This document shows, piece after piece, positions 33,876 to 42,841 of a stretch of 64,000 bases of DNA. The notes under the pieces were generated by a model that saw nothing but the letters and a program-made list of their open reading frames with translations, had not been told where the DNA came from and did no database searches. Location of the stretch: contig JAKLIG010000002.1 of the NCBI GenBank assembly GCA_022709735.1, positions 65,949 to 129,948 of the forward strand, given 5' to 3'. Within the stretch, counting starts at the first letter, position 1; every line of letters starts with the position of its first letter. This DNA comes from Patescibacteria group bacterium (GTDB lineage: Bacteria > Patescibacteriota > Minisyncoccia > Moranbacterales > UBA2206). Made by a program: the position numbers and the translations under genes.

Positions 33876-33984
33876 CCAAATTTCCGAATCTGTTGTAAAA
33901 TATAAATGCAAATTAGATATCTTTAGTTATTCGAATCATTCGAGTGGCAATTTGAATTATTCGAGTCGCTTTATTAAAAACAAA

Positions 33985-35214
33985 ATGTTTGGACAAAAAA
34001 CTAATGGATCAAATGATCCGCAAAATAAAAATTTATCCACTGATGGAAAAATGAATTTCAACGAAGATAATTTCAAAGTGGAAGAATTTCCAATTCACAC
34101 TATGAAAAACGATTTGAAAGAATTGCAAAATCCAACCGAAAAAAAATCTATTCCCACAGATGATATCAGCATAGAAAAAAATTCTTTTTTTGGGAAAAAA
34201 CCGGAAACTGTTTCGCCAGAAAAAAATGGTCCATTTTTTCAAGCGGAAACTCCAAAACCCCAGGAAAAATCTGATTTTTCTGATATTAGAACTGCTCCAG
34301 CAAAAATCGAACCGGCCTATTCTCAAGAGCCTAAAGAATTACCGAGAGAAGAAACAAAAGAAGTGCCAAAAGAAACACCGGCTATTTTTCAAACTCCAAA
34401 GGAAAATATTCCTCCTGTTCAAAGTCATGGCATCGGAAAAGCAATTTTTGTTGCTGTTATAATTTTTATAATTTTGATTGTCTGTACTGGCGGGTATTAT
34501 TTTTGGATGACAAGAGTTTCCATTTCGCCAGAAGAAATTGCCCTTCCGGAAACAGTTGAACCGATCGTAGAAACAATCCCCGATGAAACAATCGCCTTAC
34601 CTGCTTTATCCGCCCAAAATTCAAATTATCTGCAAATTAATCTAACAGACGCTACTGCCGAAAGCCTCAAAACAACCTTGAATAGTTATACCGAAAAAGT
34701 TCTTGCGACCAAAACAATCGGCGCTTTTGAATTTTTAATAACTGACGAAAAAAATAATCCAATCACTTTCAAGGATTTCGCCGATAAATCAGGCCTGATT
34801 CTAGCGCCAGCAATTTTATCTAATCTAAATTCTGATTTTAGTCTTTATATCTATAATTATGGAGAAAACACGCGCTTTGGACTCTCTATATCCTCAAAAA
34901 ATGATACGCTTTTAAAAACTGCGCTCCTAAAAGAAGAAAAAAACCTTTTTAAGGGCTTATCTCCGCTATATCCAGCCTTAACTGCTAATCCGCTAAGCAC
35001 TTTTTCTACTACTGCCTATAAAAACAACGCCGTTCGTTATTTAAACATAACCACTCCGGATGATTATGCAGTTGATTATATTATTATTAACAAAAAACTG
35101 CTTATTGGCACAACCAAAACTGCCACATTTTCGATTTTAGACCGCATATTGGCACCAAAAAATGAGGATAGCCTTGAAAATAGCAATGAAAATACGACTC
35201 CTGTTATTCCTTAG
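33985..35214 (+). CDS. single-pass membrane-anchored protein with large extracytoplasmic domain
   Basis: The track ORF starts at 33952 inside a repeat element, so the Met at 33985 is the likelier start. One TM helix (AIFVAVIIFIILIVCTGGYYFWM). Confidence 0.45.
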   Translation: MFGQKTNGSNDPQNKNLSTDGKMNFNEDNFKVEEFPIHTMKNDLKELQNPTEKKSIPTDDISIEKNSFFGKKPETVSPEKNGPFFQAETPKPQEKSDFSDIRTAPAKIEPAYSQEPKELPREETKEVPKETPAIFQTPKENIPPVQSHGIGKAIFVAVIIFIILIVCTGGYYFWMTRVSISPEEIALPETVEPIVETIPDETIALPALSAQNSNYLQINLTDATAESLKTTLNSYTEKVLATKTIGAFEFLITDEKNNPITFKDFADKSGLILAPAILSNLNSDFSLYIYNYGENTRFGLSISSKNDTLLKTALLKEEKNLFKGLSPLYPALTANPLSTFSTTAYKNNAVRYLNITTPDDYAVDYIIINKKLLIGTTKTATFSILDRILAPKNEDSLENSNENTTPVIP

Positions 35215-35377
35215 GATTATCCATGCTGTGGATAACTTGTGAGAAAACACTCCTTATCCCCAAAAAAGAAAATTACTTTAAAATTCTTTTATTTTTTACA
35301 TTTACGCTGTAAACTGATTGAAAAATTGAAAAAATCTAATTTTTACGCTTAGATAAAAGATTTTTTAGTTTATTGCA

Positions 35378-35406
35378 TTGACTTTAGAGTATTTTCTTGC
35401 TATAAT
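35378..35406 (+). promoter_or_regulatory. near-consensus sigma70-type promoter (TTGACT-17 bp-TATAAT with TGn extended -10)
   Basis: ttgactttagagtattttcttgcTATAAT read directly. No protein-coding gene follows for ~640 bp. Confidence 0.55.
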
Positions 35407-35412
35407 AATAGT

Positions 35413-35940
35413 ATCAATTGAACATTAACAACTTATTCCCGACGGCGGAAAAGTTTTCAATCGCAATTTCCCCCTATTTGCGATTGAAAATTATTCTGCT
35501 GTCCAAGCATTCTTGCCAACGCGCAAGAGTCGCTCCGATCTTCTGACATCGGAGACCCAAAATAAAAACAAAAATTTTTTATTAAAATAAAAACAAAAAA
35601 TAAAAAACAAGTTCTTTAAATCCAAAGGCCAAGTGCCAGAGGATGGCAGGAGAAAAAGCATAAAAAAAGTCAGAAATGCTTAAGGCATGTACATAAAATA
35701 CACCCAAGCTATAATTTCCGAATGGTATATCCATTTGAGTGAATAATAATTTATTCTTCTTTCAAGTGGATATACCAAAGCCTCTCACCCGGGCTAGGGA
35801 ATTTCCGCTCTCGGTGTTAGTACATGACAAACACCGGGGCGTTCAGCCTATAATTTTTATTTATTGGGCGTCGAACGCCCTGGTTACCATACCATATGGA
35901 TATCGGGGTGAAGTTAGGTTATAAATTTTTGATTTTAAAG
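35413..35940 (+). ncRNA. candidate structured ncRNA(s) of unknown identity, transcribed from the strong promoter
   Basis: 840-bp ORF-free region (35215-36054). Stable hairpins at 35454-35487, 35505-35522 and 35530-35551, followed by an A/T run. A GC-rich segment at 35720-35920 carries long inverted repeats (tggtatatcca/tggatatacc; gggcgttc/gaacgccc). Confidence 0.3.
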
Positions 35941-35964
35941 GCACCAAAGAAAGGGTGTTTTTAT

Positions 35965-36031
35965 TTTTTACGAAATACGAAAAGGCTTTTTAAATGTTTC
36001 GTATTTCGTTCATTTCGTAGTTCGTAAATAG
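35965..36031. promoter_or_regulatory. third copy of the TTTCGTATTTCGTTCATTTCGTAGTTCGTAAAT upstream element, 5' of the YraN gene
   Basis: cgaaatacgaaa...tttcgtatttcgttcatttcgtagttcgtaaatag. Confidence 0.5.
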
Positions 36032-36054
36032 AAGAAGTCTGCTATAATTTAACT

Positions 36055-36438
36055 ATGGCTACTAATACTAAAAATTTAGGTAATCTCGGCGAGGAAGAAG
36101 CTGTAAAATATTTGAAAAATAATGGTTATGAAATTTTAGATCGAAATTTTCAAAATAATTTCGGGCGAAGACTCGGAGAAATTGATATTATTGCGCTTGA
36201 CCCCAAAGAAAAAGAAATTGTTTTTGTGGAAGTTAAGACCAGAGAATTTGAAAAATATAAAAATACTCTTCCTGAAGAAAATATCACTTATTCCAAGCTT
36301 AGAAAACTCAATAAAATCGCCAACGCTTATCTTCGACTTAAAAATCTGGAGGATGAGGCTTATCGTTTTGATGCTATTTCTGTTTGGCTAAGCGAGATAA
36401 CCGGAGAAGCAAAAATAAAGCATATCCAAAGCCTTTAA
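36055..36438 (+). CDS. YraN-family (UPF0102) endonuclease
   Basis: GEEEAVKYLKNNGYEILDRNFQ...GEIDIIALDPKEKEIVFVEVKTR. Confidence 0.7.
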   Translation: MATNTKNLGNLGEEEAVKYLKNNGYEILDRNFQNNFGRRLGEIDIIALDPKEKEIVFVEVKTREFEKYKNTLPEENITYSKLRKLNKIANAYLRLKNLEDEAYRFDAISVWLSEITGEAKIKHIQSL

Positions 36439-36521
36439 TAGACAATGAAGTTTTTCTCTGCTAGAATTGTATTATAATTAAGATAGAATTAACTATCGAT
36501 TTTAAATCTTAAGCTAAATTT

Positions 36522-41030: not shown

Positions 41031-42653
41031 AAACAAAACCTTCACCATAACCAAACCATAAACAAAAATAATTCCCAAAACCGGCCAGAAAATTTGGCGC
41101 GGTTTTATTTTCTCCGAAACTACTGTTAAAAATGCCGCCCCTCCAAAAAACATCGCATACCAAAAAAGTTTCAACTCATTAAGCAGAAAAACGCTTAAAA
41201 CAAAGGAAATAAATAAGCCGGACGCTACAATCGTCCGCGCTTTTTTTTCTCCGAAAATAACTGGAATTGTCCAAACATCGTCCTTTTTGTCGCCAGCGAT
41301 ATCCTTGAAATCTTTGATTGGAAGTGAAAGCGTTCCAGCGATAAGCATAAGGAAAATAATTCGGCTAGAAAGAGTATGGATGGTTTGATTTTCAGAAATT
41401 AAAATATAACCTAAAAATAAAACCATAAGCGACGCAAGAGAACTTATGAATGTTGCAATGATTGGAAATCTTTTCAGGCGAAATGGCTCGGCGGAATATA
41501 TCCAAGCAATCACTTGATAAACAACAAGGAGCGAAGCGAAAGAAAAACCAATTGTGAGCCCGCCTACAATCGACAAAGAAAAACAAGCCAGTCCGAAATG
41601 CGCATAAGATTCCCGCGTAAAAATTTCTTGCTGAAGCGGGCGTTCCGGATTAGAAATACGATCTATTTCAAAATCATTGAGATCATTTACCACGACTGAT
41701 GCTTTCCAAGAAAGCCAAACACTAATAAGAAGCACCACGGCAGAAAGAATAGAAAATAAATCCAGGCGAAGATTTTGCGGATAATTCAAAAATCCGATTG
41801 CTATTCCAATGAAAAAAAGTCCGCTGTGATAGAAAATTTGCGGAAAACGGAAATTCTTGAGAACTGCGATAAATTTTTTTGAGTCAATTCGCCAAAATAA
41901 AAAAGAAAGCAAAAAAATCAAAAGAATAAAATAAATAAAATCCAAACGATAGGCCAGAGCCAGCGCGAAGTGGAGCGCCGAAAAATCAATTCCCATCGTT
42001 CGGCTCATCCCGCCGAAAAATTGAGCAATTTGATAAGCTTGAATTTCCGAAATTTTATTTTGCCCGGAAAAAAAAGAAAAAGTGTAAAAAAACAGCGATG
42101 GGAAAGCGCCAAGAAAAAACAAAATAGAATAAACCGCCAAAGCAGTAAAAATTGTCTTTAGAATTTTTTTAGTTTTTATCCAAACAACTGCCGAAAGCAA
42201 AAAAATAACTGTCAAAAAAATAATTTTTGTTCCAAAATAAACAATCGCGCTTGGAAGATGGCCAAAAACACTGCTATATTGGAGCCATAAATCATGCGGA
42301 GCGCTGAAAAGATAAAAACTCCAGTAAATTTCCCCACCGGTCTTCGCCATATCGATAAGCGGAGGAAAAAGGACAAAAATCAAGGAAAAAATCATAATCC
42401 CGGACAATTTTTCGGGGTTAATTTTCAAAATAAGGCTTAAAAAAAGCCAAAATAGGACTATTACCAGTGAAAAAAAGTAGAAATTATGAATATATTCCAA
42501 TATTGCCTCATAAAAAGAAAGTGGCTTAGATAAAGCTAAAAACTGCTCAATAAAGCATCTTATAAAAATAATTCCCAGAAAAGCCATAATCCAAACCAAA
42601 AGACTGGCCTTTTTCTCAAATAAATTATTGAAAAGTTTTTGTATTTTATCCAT
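41025..42653 (-). CDS. fusion membrane protein: N-terminal polytopic domain plus C-terminal UbiA-family prenyltransferase domain
   Basis: C-terminal domain carries the first Asp-rich motif NDLNDFEIDRISNPERP (NDxxDxxxD) and the second DFKDIAGDKKDDVWTIPV. Confidence 0.55.
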   Translation of the reverse strand: MDKIQKLFNNLFEKKASLLVWIMAFLGIIFIRCFIEQFLALSKPLSFYEAILEYIHNFYFFSLVIVLFWLFLSLILKINPEKLSGIMIFSLIFVLFPPLIDMAKTGGEIYWSFYLFSAPHDLWLQYSSVFGHLPSAIVYFGTKIIFLTVIFLLSAVVWIKTKKILKTIFTALAVYSILFFLGAFPSLFFYTFSFFSGQNKISEIQAYQIAQFFGGMSRTMGIDFSALHFALALAYRLDFIYFILLIFLLSFLFWRIDSKKFIAVLKNFRFPQIFYHSGLFFIGIAIGFLNYPQNLRLDLFSILSAVVLLISVWLSWKASVVVNDLNDFEIDRISNPERPLQQEIFTRESYAHFGLACFSLSIVGGLTIGFSFASLLVVYQVIAWIYSAEPFRLKRFPIIATFISSLASLMVLFLGYILISENQTIHTLSSRIIFLMLIAGTLSLPIKDFKDIAGDKKDDVWTIPVIFGEKKARTIVASGLFISFVLSVFLLNELKLFWYAMFFGGAAFLTVVSEKIKPRQIFWPVLGIIFVYGLVMVKVLFF

Positions 42654-42692
42654 AACTTAAATTTAGCAAAAACTCGAAAGAAAGTCTATCTC

Positions 42693-42746
42693 CATTTCCA
42701 AAGCCGAGCTTTAGTGAAAAACCCAAACGGTTCAAAAAGCTCGGCT
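42693..42746. repeat. hairpin repeat AAAGCCGAGCTTTAG-N-TTCAAAAAGCTCGGCTTT (copy 2)
   Basis: See 22862-22914. Confidence 0.7.
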
Positions 42747-42841
42747 TTAAATAAACTCTTTGCAAAATAATATATCCACTTATCCACAGCCCTAATTTTG
42801 TTTTTAAAAAAATACTTTTTGTGGTATAATTTCAATGCAAT

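Follow-up and report, generated by a model that had tools for sequence, protein, structure and literature searches.

What is encoded in the 840 bp between the stop of an upstream ORF (position 35214) and the start of yraN (36055) in a stretch of 64 kb of DNA from a Patescibacteria group bacterium, here called the window? An earlier note, written from the sequence of the window, had described positions 35215-36054 as gene-free and had proposed that a near-consensus promoter there drives a structured RNA without annotation, perhaps one of the housekeeping RNAs. The lack of genes was confirmed; the ORFs in this region are short, none is conserved in homologues, and neither a conserved reading frame nor coding for a small protein was found in the aligned RNA region. 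Conservation, synteny and covariation across 58 homologues now give strong support to the presence of a structured RNA. As judged from these sequences, the region is the gene for a large non-coding RNA of ~500-560 nt, which represents a previously undescribed family in Candidatus Moranbacteria (Candidate Phyla Radiation, CPR). That the RNA is real, independently transcribed and structured, and that its family is new, appears very probable. The best explanation as a whole, namely an RNA of a new family which would act in trans as a scaffold or sponge with a conformational switch, is given a probability of roughly 75%; the mechanism in it, i.e., scaffold or sponge plus switch, is proposed tentatively and at rather less than even odds. 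The features are collected in Table 1.

Table 1. Predicted features of the RNA gene and its flanks; positions are counted from the first nucleotide of the window.
Feature	Position	Strand	Basis or remark
DnaA-box consensus 9-mer TTATCCACA	35227..35235	-	exact match
Promoter of the RNA gene, TTGACT-17 nt-(TG)c-TATAAT	35378..35406	+	sigma-70 score 11/12 plus TG
Predicted transcript, ~555 nt, whole structured RNA	35413..35966	+	ends inferred from promoter and terminator
Hairpin H1	35442..35502	+	RNAalifold on 58 sequences
Hairpin H2, apical loop YAACRY	35507..35532	+	compensatory double changes at most pairs
Hairpin H3, loop UUCUGAC at 35541-35547	35533..35554	+	covarying stem; kissing-loop partner
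A-rich single-stranded linker (ACCCAAAAYAAAAACAAAAA ... AAAAUAAAAAYAAAAAAUAAAAA)	35555..35610	+	conserved
GUUCUUU (35611-35617), then small hairpin Pa	35611..35637	+	alignment
Segment AGAGGAUGGCAGGAG	35638..35652	+	strand of long-range helix
Hairpin Pb, loop with GUCAGAA at 35669-35675	35657..35680	+	second kissing-loop partner
Long nested stem capped by HA	35686..35826	+	RNAalifold, 28 sequences
Optional inserted hairpin tggtatatcca/tggatatacc	35723..35777	+	27-nt arms
Hairpin HA, tip of the long stem	35780..35794	+	covarying stem
Single strand ACAAAC, then hairpin HC (35833-35884)	35827..35884	+	covariation
Tail UACCAUACC, then CGGGGUGAAG at 35904-35913	35885..35913	+	tail conserved
Intrinsic terminator, GGCACC-loop-GGGUGUU, then U run	35940..35969	+	motif search
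Spacer outside the RNA, TACGAA/TTCGTA hexamer repeats and extended -10 of yraN	35970..36048	+	inverted repeats
Extended -10 element of yraN, TGCTATAAT	36040-36048	+	CTGCTATAAT conserved in relatives

The promoter was confirmed as the note had read it, including the TGn extension, and is the top-scoring promoter site within 34800-36500. The pattern TTGAC[TCG]-17-TGnTATAAT was found in 53 of the 58 homologues, with the 17-nt spacer and the TG in every one of these. Only one terminator-like site (35940-35969) was detected within 34800-36500, and 43/58 homologues end in GGUGUUUU. Two separate segments had been described in the note; the evidence favours one RNA of ~555 nt, since long-range pairings connect the 5' part with the central one and no terminator-like site lies between the promoter and 35940. 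Conservation extends across the whole interval 35413-35966. A second candidate promoter at 35688-35715 (TGTACA-16-TATAAT), which would give two separate RNAs, was rejected; its hexamer is not conserved in homologue L019, and both hexamers are situated on strands of covarying helices. The RNA would be transcribed independently and strongly, and would act in trans.

Homologues were obtained from MAGs of Candidatus Moranbacteria and from metagenomes, where a scan yielded 72 loci and further loci were reached through YraN; the non-redundant set consists of 58 copies with <97% mutual identity. The loop of H1 (UUUCCCCCUAU, 35467-35477) is invariant, which is partly due to ascertainment, since most homologues were retrieved by an exact pattern in this loop; it is the same in 8/8 loci that were found via YraN and not via the RNA and are thus unbiased. 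Mean identity of the RNA core to the window was 69.8%, compared with 65.2% for yraN DNA, and in 43 of 54 comparisons the RNA was better conserved than yraN. At every locus with enough flanking sequence the gene order is pnp, a gene for a hypothetical membrane protein, the RNA and yraN, which is on the same strand as the RNA and directly 3' of it at the syntenic loci; yraN, a dksA-like gene, lspA and comM form the downstream operon. The upstream neighbour is a hypothetical single-pass membrane protein of 420 aa, for which no Pfam family was found. Following divergent YraN sequences led to sister lineages with yraN behind dnaJ, where no such RNA was found within 3 kb of yraN; yraN therefore does not need the RNA. 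In a divergent subclade (L019 and similar loci) the model of the long stem described below gave a weak match (E = 0.3-0.8). The RNA appears to be single-copy, this model matching the window once only. No phage, plasmid or viral contig in the collections searched matched the RNA, and a mobile-element or phage origin was rejected on this ground. Judging from the homologous loci, the RNA is passed on vertically, at one syntenic position in the chromosome. The spacer hexamer TACGAA/TTCGTA is enriched, with 64 copies in 8.7 kb versus 4 in 30 kb.

Of the three stable hairpins and the A/T run that the note had placed downstream of the promoter, the hairpins were verified: 35413-35600 folds into three of them with -54.5 kcal/mol, compared with -25.2 ± 3.8 for shuffled sequences (z = -7.8). 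The A/T run behind the third is a conserved A-rich linker and not a terminator. RNAalifold on 58 sequences gave double changes at 22 of the 35 pairs in the 5' domain. H1 consists of a lower stem (35442-35447 with 35497-35502), in which pair 35446:35498 is CG in 35 cases and UA in 22, and an upper stem (35454-35466 with 35478-35490). The linker was unpaired in every fold computed; L014 and L017 contain an inserted hairpin between its halves. The motif GUUCUUU occurs in nearly all homologues, and the stem of the adjacent hairpin Pa, formed by GGC (35627-35629) and GCC (35635-35637), was seen by eye to vary among homologues as GGC/GCC, GGU/ACC, GGUG/CACC and GGUC/GACC.

The 3' part (35720-35972) folds on the + strand with -92.4 kcal/mol and z = -7.7; z is -5.1 on the - strand. 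Upstream of it, the stem sequence of Pb changes in almost every homologue, complementarity being kept. The long nested stem was predicted by RNAalifold from 28 sequences, with 23 pairs, 20 of them showing double changes; its strands are 35686-35692/35820-35826, 35700-35704/35813-35817, 35707-35709/35807-35809 and 35713-35719/35797-35803. A model of this stem, built without the window, had its single match in the window at 35676-35834 (60.8 bits, E = 3e-10). In held-out sequences 90.1% of the cells were paired, with double changes at 22 of the 23 pairs, although here and below cell counts overstate the number of independent events, since the sequences are related. A model with two local hairpins instead (CAUGUAC..UACAUG at 35686-35705; 35813-35826) was dropped, the nested stem being preferred by RNAalifold and decisively supported by L003, L078 and L083.

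The inverted repeats which the note had listed for this part fared differently. The repeat tggtatatcca/tggatatacc forms a real hairpin, but one that is an optional insert, missing in most relatives (e.g., L003, L014, L017 and L018); homologous inserts with compensating changes are present in L031, L033, L040, L065, L066 and L094. The repeat GGGCGTTC/GAACGCCC proved to be the conserved, covarying hairpin HC, which has an A/U-rich apical loop and double changes at 8/9 predicted pairs. The third, cggtgtt/aacaccg, is not a conserved pairing, since changes in its 5' arm are uncompensated in the 3' arm; the partner of GGUGU (35813-35817) is ACACC (35700-35704), and that of the downstream ACC is GGU at the base of HC. 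The loop of HA, CUCACCC (35784-35790), is nearly invariant, and 56 of the 57 loops found read [CU][CU]CACCC. Complementary to it is the subclade-specific CGGGGUGAAG in the tail, and the minimum free energy (MFE) fold pairs both. In this single-sequence fold, 35720-35972 forms a multi-branch junction that CUCACCC and GGGGUGAAG close. The fold was dropped as a general model; it is valid for the subclade of the window only, because the GGGUGAAG element, which occurs in the close relatives of the window, is missing elsewhere.

Two long-range contacts complete the predicted fold. The loops of H3 (35541-35547) and Pb (35669-35675) would form a kissing loop of 7 bp, for which 90.6% of the cells were paired, double changes occurred at 5/7 pairs and the covariation score was reached by none of 500 shuffles. 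Three homologues (L064, L083 and L089) are without Pb, and in these the H3 loop is changed too. The other contact is an 11-bp helix of 35641-35651 with 35494-35504, i.e., the 3' strand of H1, and excludes the lower stem of H1. In this competing helix 94.7% of the cells were paired, double changes were seen at 4/11 pairs (32 cells), and pair 35503:35642 reads UA 25 times and CG 16 times with zero exceptions; its score was not reached in 500 shuffles, and slid controls were paired at 30-68%. The covariation is compatible with intramolecular or intermolecular pairing, and with a switch or with helices that form at different stages of folding. Some of the tests ran on spliced or model-fitted alignments; RNAalifold predicted little or nothing from MAFFT alignments of the full length or of the whole 3' part, owing to lineage-specific inserts. 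When all column pairs were scanned by brute force, phylogenetic signal swamped the result, though 35503:35642 and pairs labelled Y:Z were flagged. Inspection of the alignment by eye revealed no consistent covariation between GAAC of the 5' leader and GUUCUUU, between GUUCUUU and AGAGGAU (both strands nearly invariant), or between GGUUACCAUA of the tail and GAUGGCAG. The alignment with relatives, which the note had recommended, yielded in total compensatory changes in >60 base pairs.

The suggestion of a housekeeping RNA is not supported by these data, as the architecture fits none of RNase P RNA, tmRNA, SRP RNA and 6S RNA. The Rfam scan for these four, which the note had advised, matched no family. 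With Rfam 15 at the gathering threshold nothing was found in the window or in 21 related loci; at E ≤ 10 nothing relevant appeared in 35100-36150 or in L091, the shortest homologue. ARAGORN detected six tRNAs only, and no tmRNA, in the window. The Rfam models for RNase P RNA (bacterial A and B, archaeal, nuclear) were without match in the window and the 21 loci. Bacterial RNase P RNA resembles the Moranbacteria RNA in its comparable size, conserved housekeeping-style locus, long-range helices and variable peripheral hairpins; the latter lacks the universally conserved P4 or CR-I to CR-V sequences and has another order of long-range strands. The consensus motifs of P4, GAGGAAAGUCC and ACAGAA..GGCUUA, are absent, as read from sequence and consensus, which argues against RNase P RNA; the string nearest to P4, AGAGGAUGGCAG, has its covarying partner upstream at 35494-35504 and not near the 3' end. 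A tmRNA is contradicted by the absence of 5'/3' acceptor pairing, T-arm and tag frame, the 5' leader and 3' tail not being complementary and the tail lacking a conserved CCA end. There is no domain IV motif, which speaks against SRP RNA, and no Rfam match to it; 6S RNA gave no Rfam match either, and a chain of at least 8 helices over ~500 nt differs from the 180-nt rod and central bubble of that RNA. A housekeeping RNA so divergent as to be missed by current models in CPR bacteria, would agree with the apparently single-copy gene at a conserved location, its strong promoter and its high conservation, and also with the fact that, as the note had stated, none of the four was found elsewhere in the window by Rfam and ARAGORN; such genes are, however, not expected in a particular 64 kb anyway, and we regard this possibility as very remote. 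A feature of the DNA itself, such as an origin of replication, a region under DnaA control, or what is left of a decayed gene or mobile element, deserves still less credence. It could account for the A/T-rich tracts, the lineage-specific hairpin insertions and the perfect DnaA box at the left edge, which comes directly after the upstream gene's stop codon, ~145 bp before the -35 hexamer, and recurs with unchanged orientation in 45 of 53 related loci. An origin, suggested by this box and a second 8/9 box, was rejected, since only one box is conserved; no dnaA or dnaN was found among the neighbours of the RNA locus, no V-shaped switch of GC skew in the window, and the 22 DnaA boxes of the window are not above the 15.5 ± 3.8 expected by chance. 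No conserved ORF remnant and no phage or plasmid homologue point to decay or mobility of the apparently single-copy region, and selection on RNA is indicated by the >60 pairs with compensatory changes and by G-U pairs that favour the + strand.

Three other explanations accept an RNA and differ in its role. It could be a cis-acting leader (riboswitch or attenuator) of yraN and the dksA-like, lspA and comM genes, in which a signal decides on formation of the terminator. The position immediately upstream of yraN on the same strand at all times, the terminal terminator, the mutually exclusive helices and the complementarity of the near-invariant CACCC of the HA loop to the conserved GGGUG in the 3' strand of the terminator would suit this. 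Between terminator and yraN, however, there is a spacer of 85-150 nt with the conserved extended -10 CTGCTATAAT; known leaders are far smaller than an RNA of ~500 nt and at least 8 helices; several homologues have terminators without GGGUG, some of them with the same HA loop (e.g., L026, L041); and the sister lineages manage yraN without the RNA. We consider a leader distinctly improbable. Slightly better prospects, though still unlikely, belong to a trans-acting base-pairing regulator of the type of Staphylococcus RNAIII or RsaE, whose C-rich loops (UUUCCCCCUAU, YUCACCC and UUUCC motifs) would pair with G-rich ribosome-binding sites, pictured as AUAGGGGGAAA-like and GGGUGAG-like sequences near start codons. 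S. aureus RNAIII (514 nt) is likewise a chain of hairpins with C-rich apical loops and has its own promoter and terminator, features matched here by a similar length, a strong promoter and a terminator of its own, and nearly invariant C-rich loops. Unlike RNAIII, to which it shows no homology, the Moranbacteria RNA has no embedded ORF, its tertiary contacts covary, and it spans a much greater phylogenetic depth; its long-range contacts and degree of conservation exceed what is usual for simple seed-pairing RNAs, and the A-rich linker and the conserved sequence of the H1 stem would be left without explanation. To a self-assembling "ornate" RNA, in which the kissing loop and the competing helix would be intermolecular and would build a homo-oligomer, we assign a similarly low likelihood. 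Size class and ornate structure fit, the two covarying long-range pairings are equally possible between molecules, and the competing helix makes more sense if swapped between protomers; the covariation fits intramolecular pairing equally well. OLE, ROOL and GOLLD form homo-oligomers according to cryo-EM, and in ROOL and GOLLD, large ornate bacterial RNAs without assigned function, long-range or kissing contacts build the assemblies, as stated in PMC12286853. Neither sequence nor covariance models indicate similarity of the Moranbacteria RNA to these three, and OLE, ROOL, GOLLD, HEARO and raiA, families assumed to be present in Rfam 15, gave no match in our scans. ROOL and GOLLD are often associated with phages or tRNA clusters and are patchily distributed, whereas the Moranbacteria RNA is vertical, at one site, and without a phage or tRNA-cluster link. 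OLE RNA of Firmicutes is similar in size class (~600 nt), in its many conserved helices and single-stranded stretches, in being chromosomal and single-copy, and in a function which long resisted assignment. It adjoins the membrane-protein gene oapA, as the Moranbacteria RNA adjoins the gene for the 420-aa single-pass protein, a likeness in position; the 420-aa protein has no Pfam family, the Moranbacteria RNA is from another phylum, and to our knowledge an A-rich linker and a kissing-loop architecture are not features of OLE RNA.

The preferred reading remains that of an RNA of a new family acting as scaffold or sponge of a ribonucleoprotein. The kissing loop would clamp the 5' and central domains together and loop out the conserved A-rich strand of ~55 nt, and the fold would display the nearly invariant C-rich loops UUUCCCCCUAU and YUCACCC. 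A conserved cellular partner, most likely a single RNA-binding protein or several, may bind to the displayed elements, and the competing helices could lead to two conformations which might gate binding of this partner. Protein-sponge RNAs such as CrcZ, CsrB/RsmZ and 6S RNA are abundant and trans-acting, as the Moranbacteria RNA would be, with strong promoters and single-stranded protein-binding motifs, although the Moranbacteria RNA is folded much more elaborately. Its A-rich linker fits the (AAN)n pattern of CrcZ; the match to the CrcZ model is at chance level, with 11.4 bits compared to a gathering score of 95, and there are two conserved A-rich tracts only versus many repeats. Different from CsrB, it has no GGA motifs, and different from 6S RNA, it is not a rod with a bubble.

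Bacteria have few large RNAs whose folds are complex and conserved, the main examples being RNase P RNA, tmRNA, group I and II introns, OLE, GOLLD, ROOL, HEARO and raiA, and nearly all of those which were solved brought new biochemistry. In the CPR bacteria, which are mostly uncultivated and have tiny genomes, RNA biology is an almost unexplored field; a literature search found no papers on structured RNAs specific to these bacteria. The near-perfect promoter and a conservation equal to or higher than that of the neighbouring protein gene suggest that the RNA is likely important to the cells. It could perhaps be the first large "ornate" RNA specific to CPR bacteria, a housekeeping-grade molecule of ~500 nt in small genomes, which might function as a switchable ribonucleoprotein, a self-assembling particle or even a ribozyme, in a role without counterpart; this we consider doubtful. 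With 58 sequences, a map of the secondary structure and two covarying long-range contacts, the RNA is a target for structure determination and for checks in metatranscriptomes. It is a possible lineage marker for Moranbacteria, and the gene-free stretches of CPR genomes may hide further such RNAs.

The interval 35215–36054, which separates the stop codon of one ORF (420 aa) from the start of the next (127 aa), contained only short ORFs on either strand, in agreement with the gene-free region reported in the earlier note. Strand, position and length of the longest ORF all vary between genomes; thus, the interval is neither a protein gene nor a degraded pseudogene, which had been considered as the alternative. 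By Pfam, the upstream order is PNPase, a hypothetical protein, a TrmB-type regulator and the 420-aa protein, and the gap is followed by YraN, a DksA/TraR zinc-finger protein, LspA, ComM, an RpfB-like protein and KsgA. The YraN protein is identical to that of a Candidatus Moranbacteria MAG.

Related loci were gathered via YraN, independently of the RNA sequence; all possessed a gene-free gap of 700–980 bp at the matching place, and the alignment to the window extended from just past the upstream stop codon as far as the terminator. Searching metagenome contigs for exact occurrences of the loop of the first hairpin, H1, yielded 72 loci, and the same pattern had zero matches in a viral collection; blastn against phage and plasmid collections gave no matches. 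After collapsing copies of ≥ 97% identity, 58 sequences were left. In every sufficiently flanked locus, PNPase and a 420-aa-protein homologue preceded the gap; YraN (42–80% identity to that of the window) and a DksA-like gene followed it. Mean identity to the window was 69.8% for the RNA core versus 65.2% for yraN coding DNA; in 43 of the 54 comparisons, the core was the better conserved. Related lineages with yraN behind dnaJ had no such RNA within 3 kb. In one sister locus of this type, about 1.7 kb (L097:4213–5975) with only two tiny called ORFs adjoin an RRM-domain protein gene; no Rfam match was obtained, and the stretch could hold another unannotated RNA. A 2.9-kb metagenome contig carries yraN and the dksA-like gene as two tandem copies (L015:683–2788), the result of duplication or of chimeric assembly. 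Many metagenome contigs (L001, L002, L043, L044, L047, L052, L059–L061, L063, L068, L090, L093) start or end inside or beside the RNA gene, as expected if the near-invariant H1 region, common to co-occurring species, breaks assemblies, which rRNA genes also do.

The near-consensus promoter claimed previously was the best site found, and TTGAC[TCG], exactly 17 nt, TG, one base and TATAAT recurred in 53/58 homologues. A TATAAT at 35710–35715 was rejected as a promoter, being one strand of a long nested stem. The 3' end is GGUGUUUU in 43 of the 58. Two hairpin-rich segments had been proposed, the first ending in an A/T run. The segments are real; they are not separate units, since no terminator was found between them and the run after H3 is a conserved A-rich sequence, not a U tract. 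We therefore read the locus as one transcript of about 555 nt with predicted ends at about 35413 and 35966. The stretch 35413–35600 folded into the three stable hairpins previously described (-54.5 kcal/mol versus -25.2 ± 3.8 in shuffles; z = -7.8). The greater predicted stability of 35720–35972 on the + strand (-92.4 kcal/mol, z = -7.7) than on the - strand (just -71.3 kcal/mol, z = -5.1) points to a + strand RNA.

Features of the RNA locus (hairpins H1 to HC are predicted; L-numbers denote related loci)
Feature	Position	Strand	Remarks
420-aa ORF	33952–35214	+	upstream neighbour; unassigned by Pfam; a single membrane helix predicted by eye
DnaA box TTATCCACA	35227–35235	-	perfect 9-mer directly after upstream stop codon
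Second DnaA box	35254–35262		8/9; among related loci, in window alone
Promoter TTGACT-17-TATAAT	35378–35406	+	TG ahead of -10; 11/12; best site in 34800–36500
H1	35442–35502	+	RNAalifold consensus, 58 sequences
H2	35507–35532	+	RNAalifold consensus, 58 sequences
H3	35533–35554	+	RNAalifold consensus, 58 sequences
A-rich linker	35555–35610	+	conserved
GUUCUUU, Pa, AGAGRAYRGYAGAAG			after linker, in this order; Pa 3–4 bp
Pb	35657–35680	+	stem sequence differs in nearly every genome, pairing kept
Long nested stem	35686–35692:35820–35826; 35700–35704:35813–35817; 35707–35709:35807–35809; 35713–35719:35797–35803	+	
Inserted hairpin	35723–35777	+	optional, 55 nt; at tip of long stem
HA	35780–35794	+	caps long stem; loop YUCACCC almost invariant
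HC	35833–35884	+	arms GGGCGTTC/GAACGCCC
Terminator-like site, U run	35936–35963	+	sole one found in 34800–36500; 3' of both segments
127-aa ORF (YraN/UPF0102 nuclease)	36055–36438	+	downstream neighbour
Palindromic inserts	L014:2078–3000		RNA 5' leader
	L017:2019–3000; L018:2130–3000		spacer before yraN
	L018		RNA tail

Covariation, which the earlier note had proposed to look for in homologous intergenic regions, was found. In the 5' domain (58 sequences), both sides were changed in 22 of 35 pairs; the H1 loop UUUCCCCCUAU and much of the upper stem were invariant, and although retrieval by the exact loop biases the sample towards it, this held also in 8 loci not selected in that way. The loops of H3 (UUCUGAC, 35541–35547) and Pb (GUCAGAA, 35669–35675) are complementary, with the co-variants UUCUAAC/GUUAGAA (three times), UUCUGAU/AUCAGAA and UUCUGGC/GCCGGAA (twice each) and CCCUG/CAGGG (once); three lineages without Pb also carry an altered H3 loop. 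Over all 58 sequences, 90.6% of the cells (one base pair position in one sequence) of this kissing loop were paired; cell counts, here and in what follows, exceed the number of independent events, since the sequences are related. In the kissing loop, 5/7 pairs were double-changed, 0/500 shuffles reached the covariation score, and slid partners were 27–44% paired. An 11-bp competing helix is possible between 35641–35651 and 35494–35504, the latter comprising the 3' strand of the lower part of the H1 stem and two further bases. It was paired in 94.7% of cells, its score again reached by 0/500 shuffles, and pair 35503:35642, outside H1, was UA in 25 and CG in 16 sequences with zero exceptions. 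Since the H1 lower stem covaries too, the two helices would be alternatives, or one of them would form between molecules. Between the second of the RNA's A-rich tracts (35596–35609) and the U-rich tail of its own terminator (35956–35969), 12 nt are perfectly and 14 nt 86% complementary; such a low-complexity pairing could shield the 3' end.

Farther downstream, one long nested stem replaces two apparent local hairpins. RNAalifold with 28 sequences gave 23 pairs, 20 with double changes, and a covariance model from these sequences, the window excluded, matched the window once (35676–35834, 60.8 bits, E ~3e-10). In 19 held-out sequences, whose model-fitted alignment somewhat favours the stem, 90.1% of cells were paired (shuffles 68.5%, slid partners 31–42%) and 22/23 pairs double-changed. 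The repeat tggtatatcca/tggatatacc does form a hairpin, as an optional insert; the longer inverted repeat pointed out before is HC, with double changes in 8 of 9 pairs.

The DnaA box at 35227–35235 recurs in the same orientation in 45/53 related loci, about 145–190 bp upstream of the RNA promoter, and may serve DnaA-dependent control of that promoter. A replication origin there was rejected (no dnaA/dnaN nearby, no skew switch). Elsewhere, three DnaA-box-like 9-mers (42176–42788), that at 42780–42788 perfect, surround the intergenic region that separates a UbiA-family gene (-) from a TSP3-repeat protein gene (+). The spacer from the RNA terminator to the yraN promoter (35970–36030) contains direct and inverted TACGAA/TTCGTA arrays, present in 19/58 related loci (64 copies in a total of 8.7 kb of spacer versus 4 in 30 kb of RNA sequence), which look like putative operator sites for a yraN regulator. 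GC-rich palindromic inserts of about 45–80 nt, resembling CCCGCCTCGCGTCGAC...GTCGAGGCGGG, at differing positions in three AT-rich genomes, suggest a small REP- or MITE-like mobile repeat.

The candidacy for a housekeeping RNA (RNase P, tmRNA, SRP or 6S) was not borne out. At the gathering threshold, Rfam 15 (4227 families) detected six tRNAs and nothing else in the whole 64-kb window, and no known family in 18 homologous loci; at E ≤ 10, only chance matches to eukaryotic miRNA and snoRNA models were obtained for the RNA region, and none beyond chance for the most compact homologue. ARAGORN found no tmRNA in the window. A divergent housekeeping RNA is thus very improbable, and an element acting at the DNA level still more so. 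The RNA lies outside the Rfam 15 families, yet promoter, synteny and covarying fold are conserved, as expected of the unannotated structured RNA postulated; the partially covered full-text literature on Moranbacteria, Patescibacteria, Parcubacteria and CPR contained no relevant account of an RNA motif, an RNase P RNA or a structured or large ncRNA.

A role in cis, as leader of the yraN operon, appears rather unlikely, since a conserved -10 element of yraN itself follows the terminator and, in related lineages, the gene occurs behind dnaJ with no such RNA within 3 kb. Somewhat less doubtful would be a regulator acting by base pairing or, to a similar degree, a self-assembling ornate RNA, the latter being compatible with a scaffold or sponge. 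A stable and abundant RNA that acts in trans is suggested by the single syntenic copy, vertical inheritance, a near-ideal conserved promoter and a fold that combines tertiary contacts and invariant loops with no fewer than 60 supported pairs. Our best guess, with a probability of about 0.35, is a switchable scaffold or sponge that binds protein: a clamped two-domain body would display C-rich loops together with a long strand rich in A, and helix exchange could take place within it.
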